A stretch of 9,075 bases of DNA, taken from a virus. Lineage: Duplodnaviria > Heunggongvirae > Uroviricota > Caudoviricetes. Positions 84 to 7,490 of this stretch are shown here, one piece after another (positions within the stretch are counted from its first letter, which is position 1; each line of letters opens with the position of its first letter). Position numbers and translations under genes: made by a program. The stretch lies in the IMG/VR virus record IMGVR_UViG_2698536649_000010. One strand, given 5' to 3'. A model generated the notes under the pieces. The model was not told the DNA's origin and searched no databases. It worked only from the letters and a program-made list of their open reading frames with translations.

Positions 84-139
84 AAAAAGGGCGGACATCA
101 GTTCATGGGCAAACAGATGCCGCCAAACGTCACCAGAAA
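84..139 (-). ncRNA. dicF: DicF-like small RNA (cell-division inhibitor sRNA of Qin-type prophages)
   Basis: Minus-strand read (revcomp of + 84..139) is UUUCUGGUGACGUUUGGCGG...CCGCCCUUUUU. The 5' 20 nt and the 3' CCGCCCUUUUUAAAGUGAAUUUUGUGAUG context match E. coli K-12 DicF as I recall it; GC hairpin plus U5 run forms an intrinsic terminator. Same strand and downstream position relative to dicA as in K-12. The central ~25 nt differ from K-12. Confidence 0.65.
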
Positions 140-472
140 ATTGATAACAGAGGGCGTTGCAGCGGGGTTGTCACTTAAGCGTATGGTCAACCTGACAACC
201 CGGTGTCCTCAACGGGGAAGGAATAACCCCGCCATACTTACCGCTGCGCCATTTCGCGGAGTGCCACAACCGGAAGCGCACGGTCGACGAAAATTTAACG
301 ACAGGCTATCTATGAACCAGCAACCTCGCCGTGCGCTTTCGCGTTATGCTCTGACTTTTCAGAGAAATATCCTTTCAGTAAACTGTCAGTGCCGGATGTT
401 CACCCGTGTCCGGCGCACGCACTCCACTTCACCCGTGGAGAACTCCTTAATTACCAACCCTCAGGAGGGTGA

Positions 473-706
473 ATGTTAAAATCAACTCTTATTGCTAAAT
501 GCCTTTATCAAAATCGCATGGTAAGCAGCATTTCAATAGGCGAGTCTGCAGTTAAAAGTATTTTCGAAGAGTACTTTCCCGGGCATGATTTTAATAAATG
601 GAATACCAAATTACCGCCAGCAGTTTCAACGCGTATTCTGAAAGCAACCGAAAGAGCAAGTACAATTCGCGTTAACTATTTCATTAAAGATTTGTGGGAT
701 CTTTGA
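473..706 (+). CDS. hypothetical 77-aa protein, convergent to the dicB-type operon
   Basis: ATG at 473 preceded by a near-perfect SD (AGGAGG at 462..467); AT-rich coding sequence; protein-like composition. 3' end overlaps the 3' end of the minus-strand 135-aa gene by 23 nt. No homolog recognised. Confidence 0.3.
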   Translation: MLKSTLIAKCLYQNRMVSSISIGESAVKSIFEEYFPGHDFNKWNTKLPPAVSTRILKATERASTIRVNYFIKDLWDL

Positions 707-1091
707 TATCCACAGAGCCTAAAGTATGTGCATATGGATGTGCTATTATGCGCCCTCGCAGATTTGCATCATTTTCTAAATTCACTGAACGAAACAGGGC
801 ATCAACAAGGCTCTGTACAATGCAAAGGCAATCGAAGACTGTCGCCGTTTCTGTTTTGATTGATGAAAGAACATGGCCATTCACGCAAACAGAAATTACC
901 CGTTTATTAACATCGCTTTCCTGCTTTTGATTATCAGAACCATATAGCCCAGAAAAAGCATTGCGCACATTACGAACCATATTATCGATGGTTTCTTTTT
1001 CTGCGGTACTAAGGTCAAGAGTAGCCAGTTGTGAACGAACTATATTCGATGCCATTTCCTGTAATGGCGTTGGTAAATCTTTAAATTCCAT
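684..1091 (-). CDS. hypothetical 135-aa protein (operon cargo, unknown function)
   Basis: ATG at 1091 with GAGG SD about 7 nt upstream on the minus strand; lies 22 nt downstream of the preceding operon gene. No homolog recognised. Confidence 0.6.
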   Translation of the reverse strand: MEFKDLPTPLQEMASNIVRSQLATLDLSTAEKETIDNMVRNVRNAFSGLYGSDNQKQESDVNKRVISVCVNGHVLSSIKTETATVFDCLCIVQSLVDALFRSVNLENDANLRGRIIAHPYAHTLGSVDIKDPTNL

Positions 1092-1113
1092 TATTAGCCT
1101 CGTTGGTTAGCTA

Positions 1114-1332
1114 TTAACGTGGGTATGTAATCATTCTGGCAATGCTTAATGCCGCTGCTTTTTCCAGATTGGTGATATCCTGCTCCAGAGCGGACAGATT
1201 TTCAGCCTGCTTAGCCCTGGCTTCATTGGCCCATTTCAGGTCCTGCACCGCCTTAATTTTCTGGTGCATCCACTCATAAAGTTCATCATCGGTATAGTCT
1301 GGCGCGATGATGACGGGGTCTCGTTTCTGCAT
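1114..1332 (-). CDS. small prophage protein, 72 aa (YdfC-like by size and operon position)
   Basis: ATG at 1332 with strong SD (AAGGAG) 6 nt upstream on the minus strand. The 72-aa length and the position between dicA and dicF match ydfC of the K-12 dicB operon; sequence identity not verified from memory. Confidence 0.6.
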   Translation of the reverse strand: MQKRDPVIIAPDYTDDELYEWMHQKIKAVQDLKWANEARAKQAENLSALEQDITNLEKAAALSIARMITYPR

Positions 1333-1404
1333 GTCGGCTCCTTGTGGTTAGCGTTGCCTGCTTTTTAACCACGTCAGGCGAGGTGGTATCCTCTGAGGGG
1401 TCTG

Positions 1405-1761
1405 TTACTCGAGAGGAAATTGGTTATGAATACAATCAAGTTTTCTTGCCCAGAATGTGGTGGCTAAGTCTTTGACACATCCTTTAAGCCGCAGGGCTCT
1501 GACAGTTTCGCGGGAGCCATCTGCAAAAATTGTGGTCACCTTGTAACTGAAGATGAGTCCTCGCAGTTCGATGACGAAATCGTTGACAATATCTTCGGTG
1601 CACTCACCAGAGACTTTCTGAAGTAAAGGCGCATACCGCTTAGTTACCGCTCTGATAACTCTTACCTGTCCGGCAATGGCGCTGATATCAATATAAAGCG
1701 CCATCGCTGTTTCTTTGCTGATCCCTGGACGCCTTCCATTCTGATGTTTGACTTCGCCCAC
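1405..1761 (-). CDS. hypothetical 118-aa protein, first gene of the leftward dicB-type operon
   Basis: GTG start at 1761 with GAGGA SD upstream on the minus strand; first ORF downstream of the putative operon promoter. Does not correspond to the short ydfA/ydfB of K-12; an internal ATG (MALYIDIS...) is an alternative start. Confidence 0.5.
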   Translation of the reverse strand: MGEVKHQNGRRPGISKETAMALYIDISAIAGQVRVIRAVTKRYAPLLQKVSGECTEDIVNDFVIELRGLIFSYKVTTIFADGSRETVRALRLKGCVKDLATTFWARKLDCIHNQFPLE

Positions 1762-1840
1762 TGAGAAATCCTCTGCTTCCCCTTAACGCCGGGTAGCGGA
1801 ACTGTTTGCTGAGAACACCGTGCGGTGTCTTGATGAGTAG

Positions 1841-1870
1841 AATTTAGAATAGCCTAAGAGTTATGGTCAA
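1841..1870 (-). promoter_or_regulatory. candidate dicB-operon promoter with embedded DicA-type operator
   Basis: On the minus strand: -35 TTGACC (+1865..1870), 18-bp spacer, -10 TAAATT (+1841..1846). The 14-bp palindrome TTAGAATAGCCTAA (+1844..1857) overlaps the -10 and has the same TTAG-N6-CTAA form as the three sites in the dicA/dicC intergenic region. Confidence 0.4.
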
Positions 1871-1967
1871 GCTTTTGTGTAGAAAAACCTAAGCTTCTTG
1901 ATGTAAAAAACACAAGTATTTGAAAGTTTGTGCTTTTTATTACAGAGAGTTGCGAAAAAAAGGGGGG

Positions 1968-2375
1968 TTATTTATTTGCGCTTCTTTTGCGAGCTTTGAG
2001 TAGTTCTTCAAAAAGTTTGTTGAAATTCTCAACTCGAGCACGCATCTCTGACAACAGAGCCTTTTGCTCTGACTCAGGCAGTGCGTCGAACAGTTGAAGC
2101 AACTCTTTTTGATCTTCTGTCAGATTGACTGGCTGATTATCTGGGATCGGTTCGCCTGGTTGCTTATCTTCATCTCCAAAAAGAAGCCAAGTCGGCGAGC
2201 ACTGAAGCGCCTGGCTCAGTGCGAATAATCTCTTCCCCGCTGGCTGTGTTTCATCTCTTTCCCATTGAGAAATTGTTACGTGAGCCACTTTGACCAGCTT
2301 ACCTAATGCGGCCTGAGACAGTTTTAATTTTTTTCGCCTGTATAAGAGGCGAGCACCGAAGGTTTCGTTTTTCAT
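1968..2375 (-). CDS. dicA: DicA-type repressor (XRE-family HTH, cI/C2-like prophage repressor)
   Basis: 135-aa product closely matches recalled E. coli DicA along its length (LFALSQALQCSPTWLLFGDEDKQP, ARVENFNKLFEELLKAR). Divergently arranged with a Cro-like gene. Confidence 0.9.
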   Translation of the reverse strand: MKNETFGARLLYRRKKLKLSQAALGKLVKVAHVTISQWERDETQPAGKRLFALSQALQCSPTWLLFGDEDKQPGEPIPDNQPVNLTEDQKELLQLFDALPESEQKALLSEMRARVENFNKLFEELLKARKRSANK

Positions 2376-2451
2376 ATTAGGTAATTCTAATTTTTCTTGA
2401 CTTAGGTTTCTCTACGATCTAGTTTCCTTAGGAAAATCTAAGGGGTTCGAT
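2376..2451. promoter_or_regulatory. dicA/dicC divergent promoter region with three TTAG-N6-CTAA operator-like palindromes
   Basis: Sites at 2377..2390 (TTAGGTAATTCTAA), 2402..2415 (TTAGGTTTCTCTAC) and 2428..2441 (TTAGGAAAATCTAA), centres 25 to 26 bp apart. Rightward -35 TTGACT at 2397..2402 and SD AAGGGG before the dicC ATG. Leftward -10 TAGAAT (minus strand, +2384..2389) sits 8 nt from the dicA ATG with no SD, suggesting a leaderless PRM-like transcript. Confidence 0.5.
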
Positions 2452-2679
2452 ATGTTGAAAATTGATGCTATAGCGTTTTTTGGCAGCAAAACAAAGCTTG
2501 CCAATGTCGCAGGAGTTAGGCTGGCAAGCGTTGCTGCATGGGGGGAACTGGTTCCTGAAGGTCGCGCGATGCGCCTGCAAGAGGCATCCGGCGGGGAACT
2601 TCAGTACGACCCCAAAGTTTATGACGAATATCGTAAGGCAAAGCGGGCGGGGCGGTTGAACAATGAAAATCACCACTGA
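2452..2679 (+). CDS. dicC: DicC-type Cro-like regulator
   Basis: 75-aa product matches recalled DicC (GSKTKLA, LVPEGRAMRLQEASGGELQYDPKVY, RAGRLNNENHH); divergent from dicA. Confidence 0.85.
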   Translation: MLKIDAIAFFGSKTKLANVAGVRLASVAAWGELVPEGRAMRLQEASGGELQYDPKVYDEYRKAKRAGRLNNENHH

Positions 2680-3214
2680 ACAGGTTTGTGAGGCTCTGGA
2701 TACCTGGGTATGCCGACCAGGAATGACACAGGAGCAGGCGACGATATTAATCACGGAAGCATTCTGGGCTCTGAAAGAACGCCCGAACATCGATGTTCAA
2801 CGCGTCACGTTTAATGATGGCGAGGTTGATCAACGGGCGCTGGGCGTTAACCGGGTGAAGATATTCGAACGCTGGAAAGCTATCGACACCAGAGATAAGC
2901 GTGACAAATTCACGGCGCTGATTCCGGCAATTATGGAGGCTATCCGGATCAGCGATTTCAGATTGTATTGTGAAATTACTGACGGAAAAAGCATTACGTA
3001 CATGATCGCCGGGTTAAACAAAGAATATGGCGATGTGGTGGAGTCCGGGCTGCTTTTTGCGGATCCAGTTGTTGTGGAACGTGAGACTGACGAGCTTATA
3101 GAAAAAGCTATTGCTTTCAAGCACGCGTATCGTCAGCAATACCAATATTACTTTGCAGATAAACAAATGTCTGCCAGGGGGTCGTATGAGTATCGATGCA
3201 CTACGATGGGCTAA
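2663..3214 (+). CDS. YdaT-like (CII-position) prophage regulatory protein
   Basis: ATG at 2663 overlaps the dicC stop; 183-aa product resembles recalled Rac YdaT in the central region (ERWKAIDTRDKRDKFTALIPAIMEAI versus WLKGETKTQREKIQKLIPAILAIL). Sits directly after the Cro-like gene. Confidence 0.55.
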   Translation: MKITTEQVCEALDTWVCRPGMTQEQATILITEAFWALKERPNIDVQRVTFNDGEVDQRALGVNRVKIFERWKAIDTRDKRDKFTALIPAIMEAIRISDFRLYCEITDGKSITYMIAGLNKEYGDVVESGLLFADPVVVERETDELIEKAIAFKHAYRQQYQYYFADKQMSARGSYEYRCTTMG

Positions 3215-3767
3215 AAAGGTGAAAACCGGCAGTTCATCCAGTAAGTCAGTATTGACCTGGCTTGCTGATATGTGCGGTGCCGATTTGTGTGCATACCCGT
3301 CTGTATCTGCACTGGCAGAAGTAACGGAACTGAACAAAAAGACTGTGCAGGACAGCTTACGACACCTGATGGAGATTGGGTTAATTGTTGATACCGGTGA
3401 GAGAAAAGGCAGAACAAAGCAAATTGTGGTGTACCGACTTATCGGTGTAGAAGAAAGTGTTGCCGAGCCTGAATACACCCAAAAACGGGAGTCTTTAAAG
3501 GTGGGTACAATTGGTGCTGTTAATAAAAACAGTACCGAAAATGGTTATGTTTCAGCACAAAACAGACCCAAAAACAGAACTCTTAGCTGCATGGAAAATA
3601 ACCAAAGACACCCAAATTTTCCATCAAAGACACCCAAAAACGGATCACGGAACCCAAAGGAACCCAAAGATCTAAACCCCACACATAACGCACGCGAGAG
3701 TGCTCCGACCAGTGAGCAGGAAGTTTTGTCGTTACAGGCAGCCCCCCTGTATTCCTGTATGGCCTGA
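3186..3767 (+). CDS. replication initiator, N-terminal winged-helix part (lambda O-like role); probably truncated by a frameshift
   Basis: ATG at 3186 with GGGGG SD. N-terminal HTH-like region, then a low-complexity linker encoded across iteron-like repeats. Frame ends at TGA 3765..3767 shortly after a C6 homopolymer (3742..3747); the following frame carries the DnaT-like continuation. Confidence 0.6.
   Translation: MSIDALRWAKKVKTGSSSSKSVLTWLADMCGADLCAYPSVSALAEVTELNKKTVQDSLRHLMEIGLIVDTGERKGRTKQIVVYRLIGVEESVAEPEYTQKRESLKVGTIGAVNKNSTENGYVSAQNRPKNRTLSCMENNQRHPNFPSKTPKNGSRNPKEPKDLNPTHNARESAPTSEQEVLSLQAAPLYSCMA
3475..3670 (+). repeat. iteron-like direct repeats (candidate replication origin) inside the initiator gene
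   Basis: Six copies of an ACCCAAA-core motif with core at 3477, 3566, 3609, 3631, 3652, 3662. Spacings of 43, 22, 21 and 10 bp approximate multiples of a helical turn. Position inside the linker-coding part of the initiator gene parallels ori-lambda inside O. Confidence 0.45.
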
Positions 3768-3790
3768 GCGAACCCATCGGAAAATTCCCG

Positions 3791-4225
3791 ATGAGCGATA
3801 GCTGGTATCCGTCACGGGATTTTCGACGACGGGCTGCGTTGTGGGGGATGGCTTTGCCGGAGACAGAATTTACACCTGCTGAACTTGCCGCCTTCCGGGA
3901 CTACTGGGCAGCGGAGGGGAAAGTGTTTACGCAGATTCAGTGGGAGCAGAAATTCGCCCGTCACGTAAATCACGTCAGGGCGCAGGTTAAACCAGTCAGC
4001 AAAGGGGTAAACCATGCAGCAGCACCAGGTGGCACCGCATCACGGGCAGTTCAGGAAATTCGGGCAGCACGTGAGCAGTGGGAACGTGAAAACGGATTTA
4101 TCAGCGACGGAAACGGCCTGGAAGCTGTGGGAACTCATGGGGGTGGTTTATTCGAACCGCTGGATCCAGAAGAACGGGGCCGCACCTTCGAAGCTCTGGA
4201 TTGCACAGATTGGCGCGATGACTGA
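3791..4225 (+). CDS. DnaT C-terminal-domain-like (primosomal protein I-like) ORF; probably the frameshifted C-terminal half of the initiator
   Basis: Product YPSRDFRRRAALWGMALPETEFTPAELAAFRDYWAAEGKVFTQIQWEQKFAR aligns with recalled E. coli DnaT ([55 protein letters not shown]). The similarity continues upstream of ATG 3791 in the same frame (EPIGKFPM versus VPMGKFAM), where no start codon exists. 3' end in this frame (4225) overlaps the P-like gene by 212 nt, so the true stop is uncertain. Confidence 0.5.
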   Translation: MSDSWYPSRDFRRRAALWGMALPETEFTPAELAAFRDYWAAEGKVFTQIQWEQKFARHVNHVRAQVKPVSKGVNHAAAPGGTASRAVQEIRAAREQWERENGFISDGNGLEAVGTHGGGLFEPLDPEERGRTFEALDCTDWRDD

Positions 4226-4679
4226 GCAGCAAATCCGGCAGGTCTGCCGCCAGTGCATGGACCGCTGCCGGGCGGGTGAAACATGGCCTCCGGACCTGGC
4301 TGAGTTTGTGGCACTGATTTCGAAAAGCGGAGCCAATCCATTCGGTCTGACGGTGGATGCTGTGATGGAGGAGTACCGCCGCTGGCGCAATGAGTCCTGG
4401 CGATACGACGGAAGTGATAAGTACCCGTGGTCTCAGCCTGTGCTGTATCACATTTGCCTCGAGATGCGTTCAAAGGGGATTGAGCGCCAGATGACCGAAG
4501 GGGAATTAAAACGGCTTGCAGAACGGCAACTGACGAAATGGGCAAAGCATGTTAGTAACGGCCTGAGCGTTCCGCCAGTCCGGCGACAACTGGCGGCCCC
4601 CAAACGCCCGTCGGGGCCAACGCCAATTGAGTTGCTGAAACAGGAATATGAACGCCGGAAAGCGGCCGGTTTTGTCTGA
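4014..4679 (+). CDS. lambda P-like replication protein (DnaB helicase loader)
   Basis: ATG at 4014 with AAGGGG SD 7 nt upstream; 221 aa. C-terminal half aligns with recalled lambda P (YDGSDKYPWSQPVLYHICLEMRSKGIERQMTEGELKRLAERQL versus YPDAESYPWKSNAHYWLVTNLYQNMRANALTDAELRRKAADEL). Confidence 0.75.
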   Translation: MQQHQVAPHHGQFRKFGQHVSSGNVKTDLSATETAWKLWELMGVVYSNRWIQKNGAAPSKLWIAQIGAMTEQQIRQVCRQCMDRCRAGETWPPDLAEFVALISKSGANPFGLTVDAVMEEYRRWRNESWRYDGSDKYPWSQPVLYHICLEMRSKGIERQMTEGELKRLAERQLTKWAKHVSNGLSVPPVRRQLAAPKRPSGPTPIELLKQEYERRKAAGFV

Positions 4680-4713
4680 GTTGAGAAGTAATTTTTACCG
4701 GGAGGAAAATTTA

Positions 4714-5448
4714 ATGGAAACCGTTTTTGACGCACTGAAAGCGATGGGAAAAGCCACGTCGGTATAGCTGGCTGCGCGACTTGATATCAGTCGTGAAGAA
4801 GTACTGAACGAGCTGTGGGAACTGAAAAAGGCTGGCTTCGTTGATAAAAGCGTATACACCTGGCGTGTGGCTGATAACAACGTTCAGCAGGAACAGCCAG
4901 CGCCAGAAGAAACCACCACGGCAACAGAAGCGAAAATCTCAGAGTGCGATTTAACCGCGACGATTGAACAACGCGGACCACAAACGGCGGATGAACTGGC
5001 TACGCTGTTCGGTACAACATCCCGCAAAGTTGCTTCAACGCTGGCAATGGCAATCAGCAAAGGTCGTCTGATTCGCGTAAACCAGAACGGTAAAATTCGT
5101 TACTGCATACCAGGTGATAATTTACCAGCAGAGCCGAAAGTTGAATCGGTAGCGGAAACCGATGGTAAAGCCTTTCCTCAGCCAGCCGGTGTTGCGTTAC
5201 CGGTACAGAAAGATGCAACACAGGAAGATATTAAAACAGAAACTGTGGCGGACATTGTGCAGTCGCTGCCATCGTTTACTGCAACGCGAGAAGATGATTT
5301 GATTTTGCCATCGCTGCATATGGCAAATCGCGAACTGCGTAGGGCGAAGAATCATGTCCAGAAGTGGGAGCGAGTCTGCGCCGCGCTGCGGGAGCTGAAC
5401 AAGCACCGGGATATGGTTGCCGGGATTTGTCGGAAGTCCGGGCAATGA
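4714..5448 (+). pseudogene. double winged-helix protein gene interrupted by an in-frame amber codon
   Basis: ATG at 4714 with GGAGG SD 8 nt upstream. Codon 18 is TAG (4765..4767) and the same frame continues open to 5448. The N-terminal repeat ([40 protein letters not shown]) and a second repeat ([38 protein letters not shown]) both look like winged-helix units. First possible restart downstream is GTG 4867. Confidence 0.55.
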
Positions 5449-5483: not shown

Positions 5484-6056
5484 ATGAAGGTAAAATGCAT
5501 CGGCAGTCTGATTGGTCGTAGTGAGGCGGCGGTCAGGATGAAAGCCCAGGTTAAGGGAATAAGCCTGATTCTGCGGGGTGATTTTCACCAGTCAACAAAA
5601 TATCCGTAGCGCGATAACGGTCAAAAATTATGGCGCTGACACTTTTGTGCCACTGGAGATGACTGTACCTAAGTTCAGGGGAGAAGAACACGTCCGGTGG
5701 GATGGTCGGGCCAGATTTAAAGGGCAGGTCATGGCTCCAGCCTGTACGCTGGCAATGGAGGCTGCCTGGCGGGAAATTGATATGGGAACCACGCCACTCA
5801 GGGATTTACTGCCGGTCCAGAGAATAAATTCCTGTTACGGTTACACCACTGTGATCTTGCAAGTGCAGGAAAGTAGGTCTACACGGTAACGCGAGTGCGT
5901 GTAACTTTTGATGTCATTCCCGTAGAAACACCGGACAAATTTTCGCTGACAGGTCATGCAGAAGGTATAAATCTGCAGATTATGGACAATTACGGATATC
6001 CGGCAAGAGCCGGAAAAAGCATGCCGCCTCTAATTCTCAGTGGAAGATGGACTTGA
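5484..6056 (+). pseudogene. decayed fimbrial major-subunit-like gene remnant (chaperone-usher type)
   Basis: Three successive frames carry fimbrial-like segments: a signal-like MKVKCIGSLIG (from 5484), then GRARFKGQVMAPACTL...INSC (5578..5889; compare FimA GGTVHFKGEVVNAACAV...LNDC), then GINLQIMDNYG (5895..6056; compare FimA GVQILDRTG). At least two frame changes are needed, and the usual C-terminal strand is missing where the AT-rich block begins. Confidence 0.35.
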
Positions 6057-6307
6057 TTATACTCATTGCATTGTCAGAAATAGTTATCCATTAAAGGCTG
6101 GCTATTCCAAACAGGATGTTGATTACAAAAATGTAATCAACATGTAAGGTTTATACTCTTCAATATGCGTATAATTTTCCTTATTTTGTTGACTTTAAAT
6201 AACAAGCTATGCACGAGGTAAAGTCGGATAAGTTTATCTGGATGTAATATATATTATTTGTAGTGTTTATAACTTTATTTCATGATAACCAATAAAAGGA
6301 GTTTTTT
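6057..6307 (+). promoter_or_regulatory. AT-rich upstream region of the binding-protein moron (promoter not resolved)
   Basis: Strongly AT-rich compared with flanking phage genes. Contains a 10-bp inverted repeat GTTGATTACA-AAAA-TGTAATCAAC (6118..6141), a TATAAT hexamer at 6170..6175, TTGACT at 6189..6194, and a strong SD AAGGAG at 6296..6301 before ATG 6308. Confidence 0.35.
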
Positions 6308-7066
6308 ATGAGGAACATAATGGCAGGTTTTTTAATATTCCTGTCTTCTGCTGCTTATGCTGATATCAATCTGTATGGTCCTGGTGGCCCGCATACAGCC
6401 TTGCTTGATGCAGCCAAACTTTATGCCGAAAAAACAGGTATTATAGTGAACGTTCATTACGGCCCACAGAACAAATGGAATGAAGATGCCAAAAAAAATG
6501 CAGATATCTTGTTTGGCGCATCAGAACAATCTGCTCTGGCTATCATTCGGGACCATAAAGACAGCTTCAGTGAAAAAGATATTCAGCCTCTTTATCTGCG
6601 AAAAAGTATTTTACTGGTAAAGAAAGGTAATCCTAAAAATATCCGGAGTATTGACGACCTGACCAGACCTGGGATTGGCGTAATTGTTAATGATGGTGGT
6701 GGTACCAGTAATACATCAGGCACTGGCGTCTGGGAAGATATTGCCGGACGTAAAGGGAATATAGAAACTGTCGCCGCAATCCGAAAAAATATTATTTTAT
6801 ATGCGCCCAATAGCGGAACTGCACGTAAGGCTCTTGAGAATCAGCCTGGAGCAGATGTCTGGATAACCTGGGCTGACTGGGCAGCCAGTAATCCAGAAAT
6901 TGGTGATGTCGTGGAAATAGCGCCAGACTACGTGATATGGCGTGATATGAACATTACAGTACGTCAGGATGCAAATGATGAAACCCGTCGATTTGCAGAA
7001 TGGCTACAAACCGATGAAGCGGCGCCTGCATTCAAAAAATATGGCTGGACCAGGAAAGGCACTTGA
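6308..7066 (+). CDS. secreted periplasmic substrate-binding protein, ModA-like fold; orphan (no transporter genes adjacent)
   Basis: 252-aa product with N-terminal signal peptide (MRNIMAGFLIFLSSAAYA then DINLYG). Resembles recalled E. coli ModA at several points (ADILFGASEQSA versus ADLFISADQKW; C-terminal RFAEWLQTDEAAPAFKKYGW versus AFYDYLKGPQAAEIFKRYGF). AT-rich codon usage. Confidence 0.8.
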   Translation: MRNIMAGFLIFLSSAAYADINLYGPGGPHTALLDAAKLYAEKTGIIVNVHYGPQNKWNEDAKKNADILFGASEQSALAIIRDHKDSFSEKDIQPLYLRKSILLVKKGNPKNIRSIDDLTRPGIGVIVNDGGGTSNTSGTGVWEDIAGRKGNIETVAAIRKNIILYAPNSGTARKALENQPGADVWITWADWAASNPEIGDVVEIAPDYVIWRDMNITVRQDANDETRRFAEWLQTDEAAPAFKKYGWTRKGT

Positions 7067-7401: not shown

Positions 7402-7458
7402 ATGAAGCAGCAAAAGGCGATGTTAAAAGGCGGGGGAGAAATCCCTCGCCACCTCTGA
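7402..7458 (+). pseudogene. hok: truncated hok toxin ORF (18 codons; HokD-like N-terminus, transmembrane segment absent)
   Basis: Encodes MKQQKAMLKGGGEIPRHL then stop. The first 8 residues match recalled HokD/RelF (MKQQKAMLIALIVICLTV...); the hydrophobic helix and C-terminal domain are missing in all three frames before the terminator, implying an internal deletion of roughly 100 to 130 bp. Confidence 0.55.
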
Positions 7459-7490
7459 TGTGTCAGGCATCCTCAACGCACCCGCACTTA

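Follow-up and report, generated by a model that had tools for sequence, protein, structure and literature searches.

The 9,075-nt stretch of DNA analysed here (the window) carries a phage replication-initiator gene whose winged-helix and DnaT-like halves lie in two different reading frames. The evidence supports the view that these are parts of a single initiator gene, interrupted by the loss of one nucleotide from a C homopolymer. The best explanation of the split, held with a probability of roughly 0.87, is a real inactivating lesion: a run of seven cytosines (C7) has been shortened to six (C6) in an initiator gene of the PPompW prophage type, which is now a pseudogene. A preliminary description of this DNA had placed three explanations side by side, namely a real lesion in a defective prophage, a homopolymer sequencing error and ribosomal slippage, and the first of these is the one that the analysis supports. 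The proposal underlying all three, of a winged-helix N-domain and a DnaT-like C-domain disconnected by the loss of one C, agreed with every test.

The CCCCCC run, the site of the deletion, occupies positions 3742-3747 of the window on the plus strand. C7 is taken as the ancestral state from the exact-flank counts in complete genomes given below, and the intact tract encodes Ala-Pro-Pro as GCC CCC CCT. The 5′ frame begins at ATG 3186, which is preceded, 4 nt upstream, by the Shine-Dalgarno sequence AGGGGG, and ends ...SLQAAPLYSCMA at TGA 3765-3767, a premature stop codon on the plus strand that is made by the frameshift. The 5′ fragment of the pseudogene (3186-3767, plus strand) thus encodes 193 aa, consisting of residues 1-187 of the initiator and an out-of-frame tail of six residues (LYSCMA) before the stop. 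The second frame, bounded by TGA 3713-3715, stays open between 3716 and TGA 4223-4225, with the reading ...GSPPVFLYGLSEPIGKFPMSDSWYPSRDF...; its earliest ATG, GTG or TTG codon is ATG 3791, only 23 nt past the premature stop. The 3′ fragment ORF that starts at this codon (3791-4225, plus strand) encodes 144 aa from M203, comprising a nearly entire DnaT-like domain and the conserved C-terminal tail. The positions given in the preliminary description for the C6 run, the stop at 3767, the frame open from 3716 and ATG 3791 were all reproduced.

Addition of one C to the run gives an uninterrupted ORF of 346 aa, which reads ...LQAAPPVFLYGLSEPIGKFPMSDSW.... The frame is broken at codon 188, and the winged-helix and DnaT domains share one frame only with this C added. 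That an inserted C would join the two frames into one had been predicted, and the prediction is borne out by comparison with a natural protein: the repaired ORF and the intact RefSeq protein WP_000020556.1 are one residue apart. Since K108T is the only difference between the two, the repair goes beyond chance. E2865 has C7 and a single 1041-nt CDS encoding WP_000020556.1; within the gene, the window differs from E2865 only in the missing C and in C for A at position 3508, the substitution that gives K108T. WP_000020556.1 is annotated as a "DnaT-like ssDNA-binding domain-containing protein" and also appears as BCI48944.1 ("phage replication protein", PPompW_14040). It is the product of the same gene in the same prophage context; that gene has C7 and is intact, whereas the window copy has C6 and is a pseudogene that carries K108T once repaired.

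The repaired protein consists of an N-terminal winged helix, a disordered linker and a DnaT-like C-terminal domain with a conserved tail. In an AlphaFold (AF2) model of the N-terminal fragment, based on a 32-sequence alignment, residues 1-90 (3186-3455, plus strand) have pLDDT values above 90 and form four helices followed by a β-hairpin. Residues 93-187 are disordered in the model, giving a linker of ~100 residues. The top Foldseek matches in the PDB are winged-helix proteins throughout, including the N-domains of plasmid Rep proteins, with weak E-values of 1e-3 to 1e-2. The Pfam HTH_36 profile gives 20.9-22 bits on the repaired protein, under its 25-bit cut-off; the same family (PF13730) is precomputed on most homologues, and PHROG families named "replication initiation O-like" match residues 1-176. 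The winged-helix N-domain suggested earlier is therefore in keeping with a confident model of residues 1-90 and with the structural matches to that model, and these residues are predicted to form an HTH_36-type DNA-binding domain. PHROG 1032, "replication initiation protein", crosses the junction and covers residues 1-298 (E 3e-90).

On the C-terminal side, the DnaT DNA-binding domain (PF17948) matches residues 201-267 with 61 bits against a cut-off of 25 (E 9e-17). By HMMER, residues 82-157 of DnaT in the PDB align with residues 194-270 of the repaired protein (E 3.9e-18), which are encoded in the shifted frame by 3764-3994 on the plus strand, and the match of the domain to 6aep reaches E 1.7e-19. 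Because the alignment spans residues 194-270, the supported homology begins 6 residues past the frameshift. The alignment with E. coli DnaT offered in the preliminary description holds for these residues, but the QAAP match across the junction lies outside the HMMER alignment and is not sustained. The homologous domain of E. coli DnaT (PDB 4ou6, 6aep, 2ru8 and 9zbt; E 1e-18 to 1e-19 over ~75 residues) is a three-helix bundle, and this C-terminal bundle of DnaT binds ssDNA (PMC4132743). Only residues 82-157 of DnaT are matched, and the N-terminal domain of DnaT is missing from the window initiator. Similarly, the DnaT equivalog model NF002770 (NCBIfam) is covered only from profile positions 82 to 166 of 179, with 93.5 bits against a cut-off of 201. 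Judged by these sequence comparisons, the initiator is a phage protein with a DnaT domain and not a DnaT orthologue.

A search with the N-terminal half returned 119 clusters. In E. coli, Shigella, Salmonella and Klebsiella, full-length relatives of 313-328 aa, 55-99% identical, combine PF13730 and PF17948 in a single polypeptide. Among phage initiators, such single-ORF fusions are common and annotated (PHROG 1032). It had been considered in the preliminary description that single-ORF winged-helix-DnaT fusions might be found in related phages or, conversely, that the two halves might always be separate genes; fusions are present in Salmonella, Klebsiella and Shigella, and no homologue was found in which each domain has a gene and a start codon to itself. 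In Salmonella P0048, the gene order (repressor, Cro, YdaT, HTH_36 + DnaT, P) is that of the window. Since similarity flanks the junction within a single ORF, the two ORFs of the window are halves of one gene. The window breaks the one-frame feature of this family, and the gene is accordingly classed, by its sequence, as a probable pseudogene of the HTH_36 + DnaT initiator family, a presumably non-functional member.

Two groups of relatives show how the halves combine with other partners. YdaU of Rac-SA53 (ALP46875.1, named "primosomal protein I") passes the same junction in one frame, as LQAAEPDYLEGLSEPIGKFPM, at a site that has no C run. Its N-terminal half is unrelated, and its C-terminal half together with the P gene is 92.7% identical to the window DNA; the only conclusion from Rac-SA53 is that one DNA block carries the DnaT-like half and P together. 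The Edwardsiella relatives keep the N-domain and have Phg_2220_C in place of the DnaT-like C-domain, with a P-family gene next to them. The idea that the type of C-domain predicts the family of the helicase loader fails for this reason, because the Phg_2220_C homologues of Edwardsiella also precede a P-family gene.

The length of the tract in nature was determined with a 91-93-nt query centred on the C run, requiring exact flanks, in 5426 complete E. coli genomes. The earlier suggestion to count cytosines against intact homologues gave a clear answer: C7 is the norm, with 512 complete genomes against 5 with C6, and C8 occurs in 1. The C6 genomes are 97-3250 (CP027599 and CP074773, separate assemblies), 10_253, 2014C-3050 and one O111:H8 strain. 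In NCBI, ENA and Logan, 14 contigs, all of them with C6, encode precisely the truncated 193-aa product of the window, and one of these contigs occurs in at least 20 samples (sequencing runs). Three of the 14, NJVH01000059, AGTG01000252 and QOZI01000153, match the window with 100% identity for more than 7 kb; the best whole-window match among the listed complete RefSeq E. coli genomes is O157:H7 PV15-279, at 99.9%. The C8 product, ...QAAPPCIPVWPERTHRKIPDER, is found on 30 contigs. On 46 contigs, the exact 144-aa product is annotated with a gene of its own, under the names "primosomal protein I" or "hypothetical", and these calls are all frameshifted copies or contig-end truncations of the same initiator gene.

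Two backgrounds of C6 can be distinguished. The 97-3250 haplotype is identical to E2865 apart from C6 and two SNPs, and the window haplotype has 3508C; C6 is thus heritable and occurs in two haplotypes or more. The window haplotype, with C6, is also present on a metagenome scaffold as far as 4074, past which a divergent block takes in the end of the gene and P. The existence of both C6 and C8 indicates that the tract mutates in both directions, as slipped-strand mispairing predicts. The broken allele as such is already known, since RefSeq (PGAP) marks the C6 copy of 97-3250 and the C8 copy of JNE132847 as "frameshifted"; the identical allele is flagged there, and the gene itself is that of WP_000020556.1.

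Indels in homopolymers are a well-known fault of 454, Ion Torrent, PacBio and ONT sequencing. It is very improbable that the C6 of the window is such an error of sequencing or assembly, in a genome that truly has C7 and an intact gene. A 1-nt loss elsewhere in the same gene (GGG to GG at 3940-3942 in F3113), seen once in 1133 genomes, may be just such an error. The C6 of the window, however, recurs in many independent assemblies: 14 independent contigs, some of them Logan assemblies from many SRA runs, share the same C6 in the same haplotype, the three NCBI assemblies that match the window over more than 7 kb include it, and 97-3250 shows C6 in each of its two separate assemblies. That 512 genomes with identical flanks were assembled as C7 argues against any systematic miscalling at the site. 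The sequencing-error alternative of the preliminary description is accordingly given little weight.

C runs are known to be prone to slippage. In principle, programmed -1 frameshifting by the ribosome, or slippage during transcription, on the tract could restore a functional amount of the full-length protein, and a -1 slip of tRNA-Pro from CCC (3744-3746) to CCC (3743-3745) restores the frame exactly. The out-of-frame state is rare, though, at ~1% (5 genomes versus 512), the more distant homologues are all in frame, and the junction of Rac-SA53 lacks the run on which slippage would take place. The existence of the C8 allele, which needs the opposite shift, argues for random mutation of tract length and against a conserved recoding signal. 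No signal of a downstream structure was detected in the 91 nt at 3750-3840, for which the minimum free energy is no better than that of shuffled sequences (z = -0.52). Recoding at a functional level, the slippage alternative of the preliminary description, thus finds no support in the conservation counts or in the folding result, and it is considered extremely improbable. A trace of full-length protein may still arise if the ribosome or RNA polymerase occasionally slips by -1 on the tract.

The window is the early region (immunity and replication) of a paa-carrying lambdoid E. coli prophage of the PPompW type. By megablast, a 1.2-kb region was found in 1253 of the 5426 complete E. coli genomes, mostly with at least 95% identity, and the same block is present in phage-collection records named "Enterobacteria phage PPompW". 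In annotated homologous loci, the genes upstream run in the order dicB, ydfC, DicA-like repressor, Cro-like, YdaT-family and initiator, and those past the initiator in the order P, a DUF1627 gene, a decayed fimbrial gene, paa, hokD and rem. The annotation of these loci places the DicA-like repressor gene at 1968-2375 on the minus strand. The rightward early operon on the plus strand includes a Cro-like gene (2452-2679) and a YdaT-family gene (2663-3214) that overlaps the start of the initiator, both assigned from the homologous loci and Pfam families. The gene for replication protein P, of the lambda P family, lies at 4218-4679 on the plus strand (PF06992, 61 bits against a cut-off of 26); its start at ATG 4218 was set by homology with RefSeq WP_000139485.1 in the homologous loci. 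This ATG overlaps the final 8 nt of the initiator frame, and the overlap suggests translational coupling. The initiator therefore sits in the early operon where HTH_36 + DnaT initiators sit elsewhere, flanked by the Cro/YdaT genes on one side and the helicase-loader gene on the other. The paa adhesin gene is at 6308-7066. PPompW prophages are integrated at ompW, show many gene inactivations and were apparently defective in all the cases examined (Nakamura et al., PMC8112680); prophages of this type also carry type III effector genes and a phage attachment site (PMC8112680).

Six direct repeats of ACCCAAA, which resemble iterons, lie at 3477-3668 on the plus strand, inside the DNA that encodes the linker. 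All six occurrences of this heptamer in the 9-kb window fall within this interval and on one strand, and none of 200 shuffled sequences reached six. The DNA of the cluster is A-rich and low in GC, and the linker that it encodes is the one disordered in the model. The narrower pattern RACCCAAA has three matches and is not significant. In phage lambda, ori-lambda lies inside gene O, between the DNA coding for the two domains of O. By analogy with this arrangement, the six-repeat cluster is a candidate origin, and the clustering of the ACCCAAA repeats suggests that the winged helix may be what binds them.

The resemblance to lambda extends to gene order and domain layout. As in lambda O/P, the initiator gene is directly upstream of, and overlaps, a gene of the lambda P family (PF06992), and like O the initiator has an N-terminal DNA-binding domain, a flexible linker and a C-terminal domain. 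In lambda the origin stands within the coding sequence of the initiator, and the repeats of the window do the same. Unlike lambda O, the window initiator has an N-domain of the HTH_36 type and a C-domain that is DnaT-like; no match of Pfam Phage_rep_O to it was obtained at E-values up to 0.01, and only the PHROG "O-like" families match its N-terminal half. Literature searches on DnaT-like initiators and on ydaU/ydaV turned up no paper on the function of this type of initiator, and the paper on defective prophages of O157 makes no mention of this initiator gene. The role of a DnaT-type ssDNA-binding domain in lambdoid initiators, which concerns the intact family and not the frameshift, appears to be uncharacterised in the searchable literature.

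If the analogy with lambda O/P is followed, the winged helix of the intact protein would bind the iteron-like repeats inside its own gene, and the C-terminal half would deliver a P-DnaB complex or hold the unwound strand through its DnaT-type bundle, the lambda-P-type helicase loader being supplied by the next, overlapping gene. In the window one C has been lost from C7, with replication slippage as the most likely cause. A ribosome that starts at ATG 3186 stops six codons past the break, at the premature TGA, and this early stop detaches the DNA-binding half (193 aa) from the recruiting, DnaT-like half. Ribosomes would halt 450 nt ahead of the start of P, with a probable polar effect on that gene. 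The expected outcome is a loss of function in which the prophage origin is no longer fired by its own initiator. Some separate expression of the 3′ fragment is possible.

The split might also be tolerated or even exploited, with the fragments acting separately or with the winged-helix fragment alone serving as an origin-binding repressor of related incoming phages. Whole domains are kept in both fragments, re-initiation is conceivable over the short distance between the stop and ATG 3791, and the C6 allele has lasted into a recombinant background, that of the metagenome scaffold, and into many isolates. This account is nevertheless judged very unlikely. No natural homologue with separately started domains was found, ATG 3791 has no clear Shine-Dalgarno sequence and is inside a predicted stem, and a search of 3100-4300 found no promoter or terminator that would drive the 3′ fragment. 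The persistence of the allele is equally expected of a neutral lesion in a prophage that is already defective (PMC8112680).

The C6, C7 and C8 alleles that occur in nature constitute a tract-length polymorphism able to switch the frame on and off. Seven nucleotides is short for a contingency tract. Together with the low frequency of the off alleles (~1% of genomes), this shortness points to ordinary slippage mutation rather than phase variation. It is also conceivable, and considered unlikely, that the C7 tract is a soft spot for repeated and selectively favoured loss of the initiator in PPompW-type prophages, a form of domestication and not neutral decay. If so, loss of the initiator would avert lethal in-situ replication after derepression, or the freed winged-helix fragment would cover the iterons of incoming phages. 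Repeated loss would have produced C6 on at least two haplotypes as well as the C8 alleles; neither domestication nor a role of its own for the winged-helix fragment has positive support from the present evidence.

With an inactivating lesion as the preferred explanation, 3186-3767 and 3791-4225 should be annotated as one frameshifted phage replication-initiator pseudogene, and the names "hypothetical protein" and "primosomal protein I", which some records use for these ORFs, should be dropped. The finding has little import beyond correct annotation. The lesion is one more defect in a type of prophage that has already been described as uniformly defective (PMC8112680), and the prophage is of note chiefly as the carrier of paa.

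Other lesions are known in the same gene. In PV15-279, IS1203 is inserted at GGG 3940-3942 with a target duplication of GGG, and two further O157 genomes list IS1203 under their match to the region. The 1-nt loss of F3113 is at this same GGG; the GG form was considered as the usual state of O157:H7 and rejected on account of its single occurrence. Most genomes by far have an intact gene, and the lesions are cases of sporadic decay in a resident defective prophage, with no general pattern.

The cytosine tract at 3742-3747 in the replication-initiator gene varies in length in both directions. Besides the six-cytosine allele of the window and the seven-cytosine allele that encodes one intact protein of 346 residues, a C8 allele exists, whose product ends in QAAPPCIPVWPERTHRKIPDER followed by a stop codon. 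This product was found in 30 contigs, and one complete genome, JNE132847 (L017), carries a C8 copy that is annotated as frameshifted. The substitution K108T in the disordered linker (position 3508) was observed solely in combination with C6. When one cytosine is added back to C6, the resulting T108-bearing sequence of 346 residues is not among the roughly 15 billion proteins of the collection searched.

A scaffold from an ENA metagenome (L007) carries the haplotype of the window, including C6, up to position 4074, and the block that follows, matching 4075-4661 and spanning the end of the initiator gene and the P gene, is about 8% divergent. L007 may be a mosaic recombinant to which the frameshift was passed on; the alternative is that the scaffold is chimeric. 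In the intergenic region between P and the DUF1627 gene, substitutions and single-base indels, eight in all, are tightly clustered at 4667-4722, and they set the haplotype of the window apart from all four complete genomes compared; this cluster looks like a small recombination patch.

The initiator gene is also hit by an insertion sequence. In strain PV15-279 (L016, 3945-5262), a copy of IS1203/IS629 interrupts the gene at the GGG triplet that corresponds to 3940-3942 of the window, and the target duplication flanking the element is GGG. F3113 (L003) has GG in place of GGG at exactly this triplet, a change present in 1 of 1133 genomes, which could be the scar of an imprecise IS629 excision or else a sequencing error.

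Relatives in Edwardsiella (L018, 3001-4676) have the winged-helix N-terminal domain in common with the initiator of the window. However, their C-terminal domain is Phg_2220_C, whereas that of the window is DnaT-like. A lambda-P-family gene still follows these Phg_2220_C-type initiators, and therefore swapping of initiator domains occurs without a switch of the loader family.

The DUF1627 gene (4714-5448) is interrupted in the window by TAG at 4765-4767, codon 18 of the ORF starting at ATG 4714, whereas base 4765 is G in two annotated RefSeq loci (L001 and L002), where the gene is frameshifted through loss of the G at window position 5194. A fimbrial-protein pseudogene (approximately 5614-6147), identified from the annotation of homologous RefSeq loci, is labelled "frameshifted; internal stop" in all of those examined. 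It is a further case of a decayed gene and adjoins the intact adhesin gene paa (6308-7066).

Further downstream (region 7402-7460), the window lacks 137 bp at the junction 7426/7427, which are present in every contig otherwise identical to it (L005, L006, and others). Either the source DNA truly carries this deletion, or the data set was edited here. Codons 9-51 of a gene for a Hok toxin of the hokD type are thereby missing, and the ORF left in the window reads MKQQKAMLKGGGEIPRHL before its stop codon.
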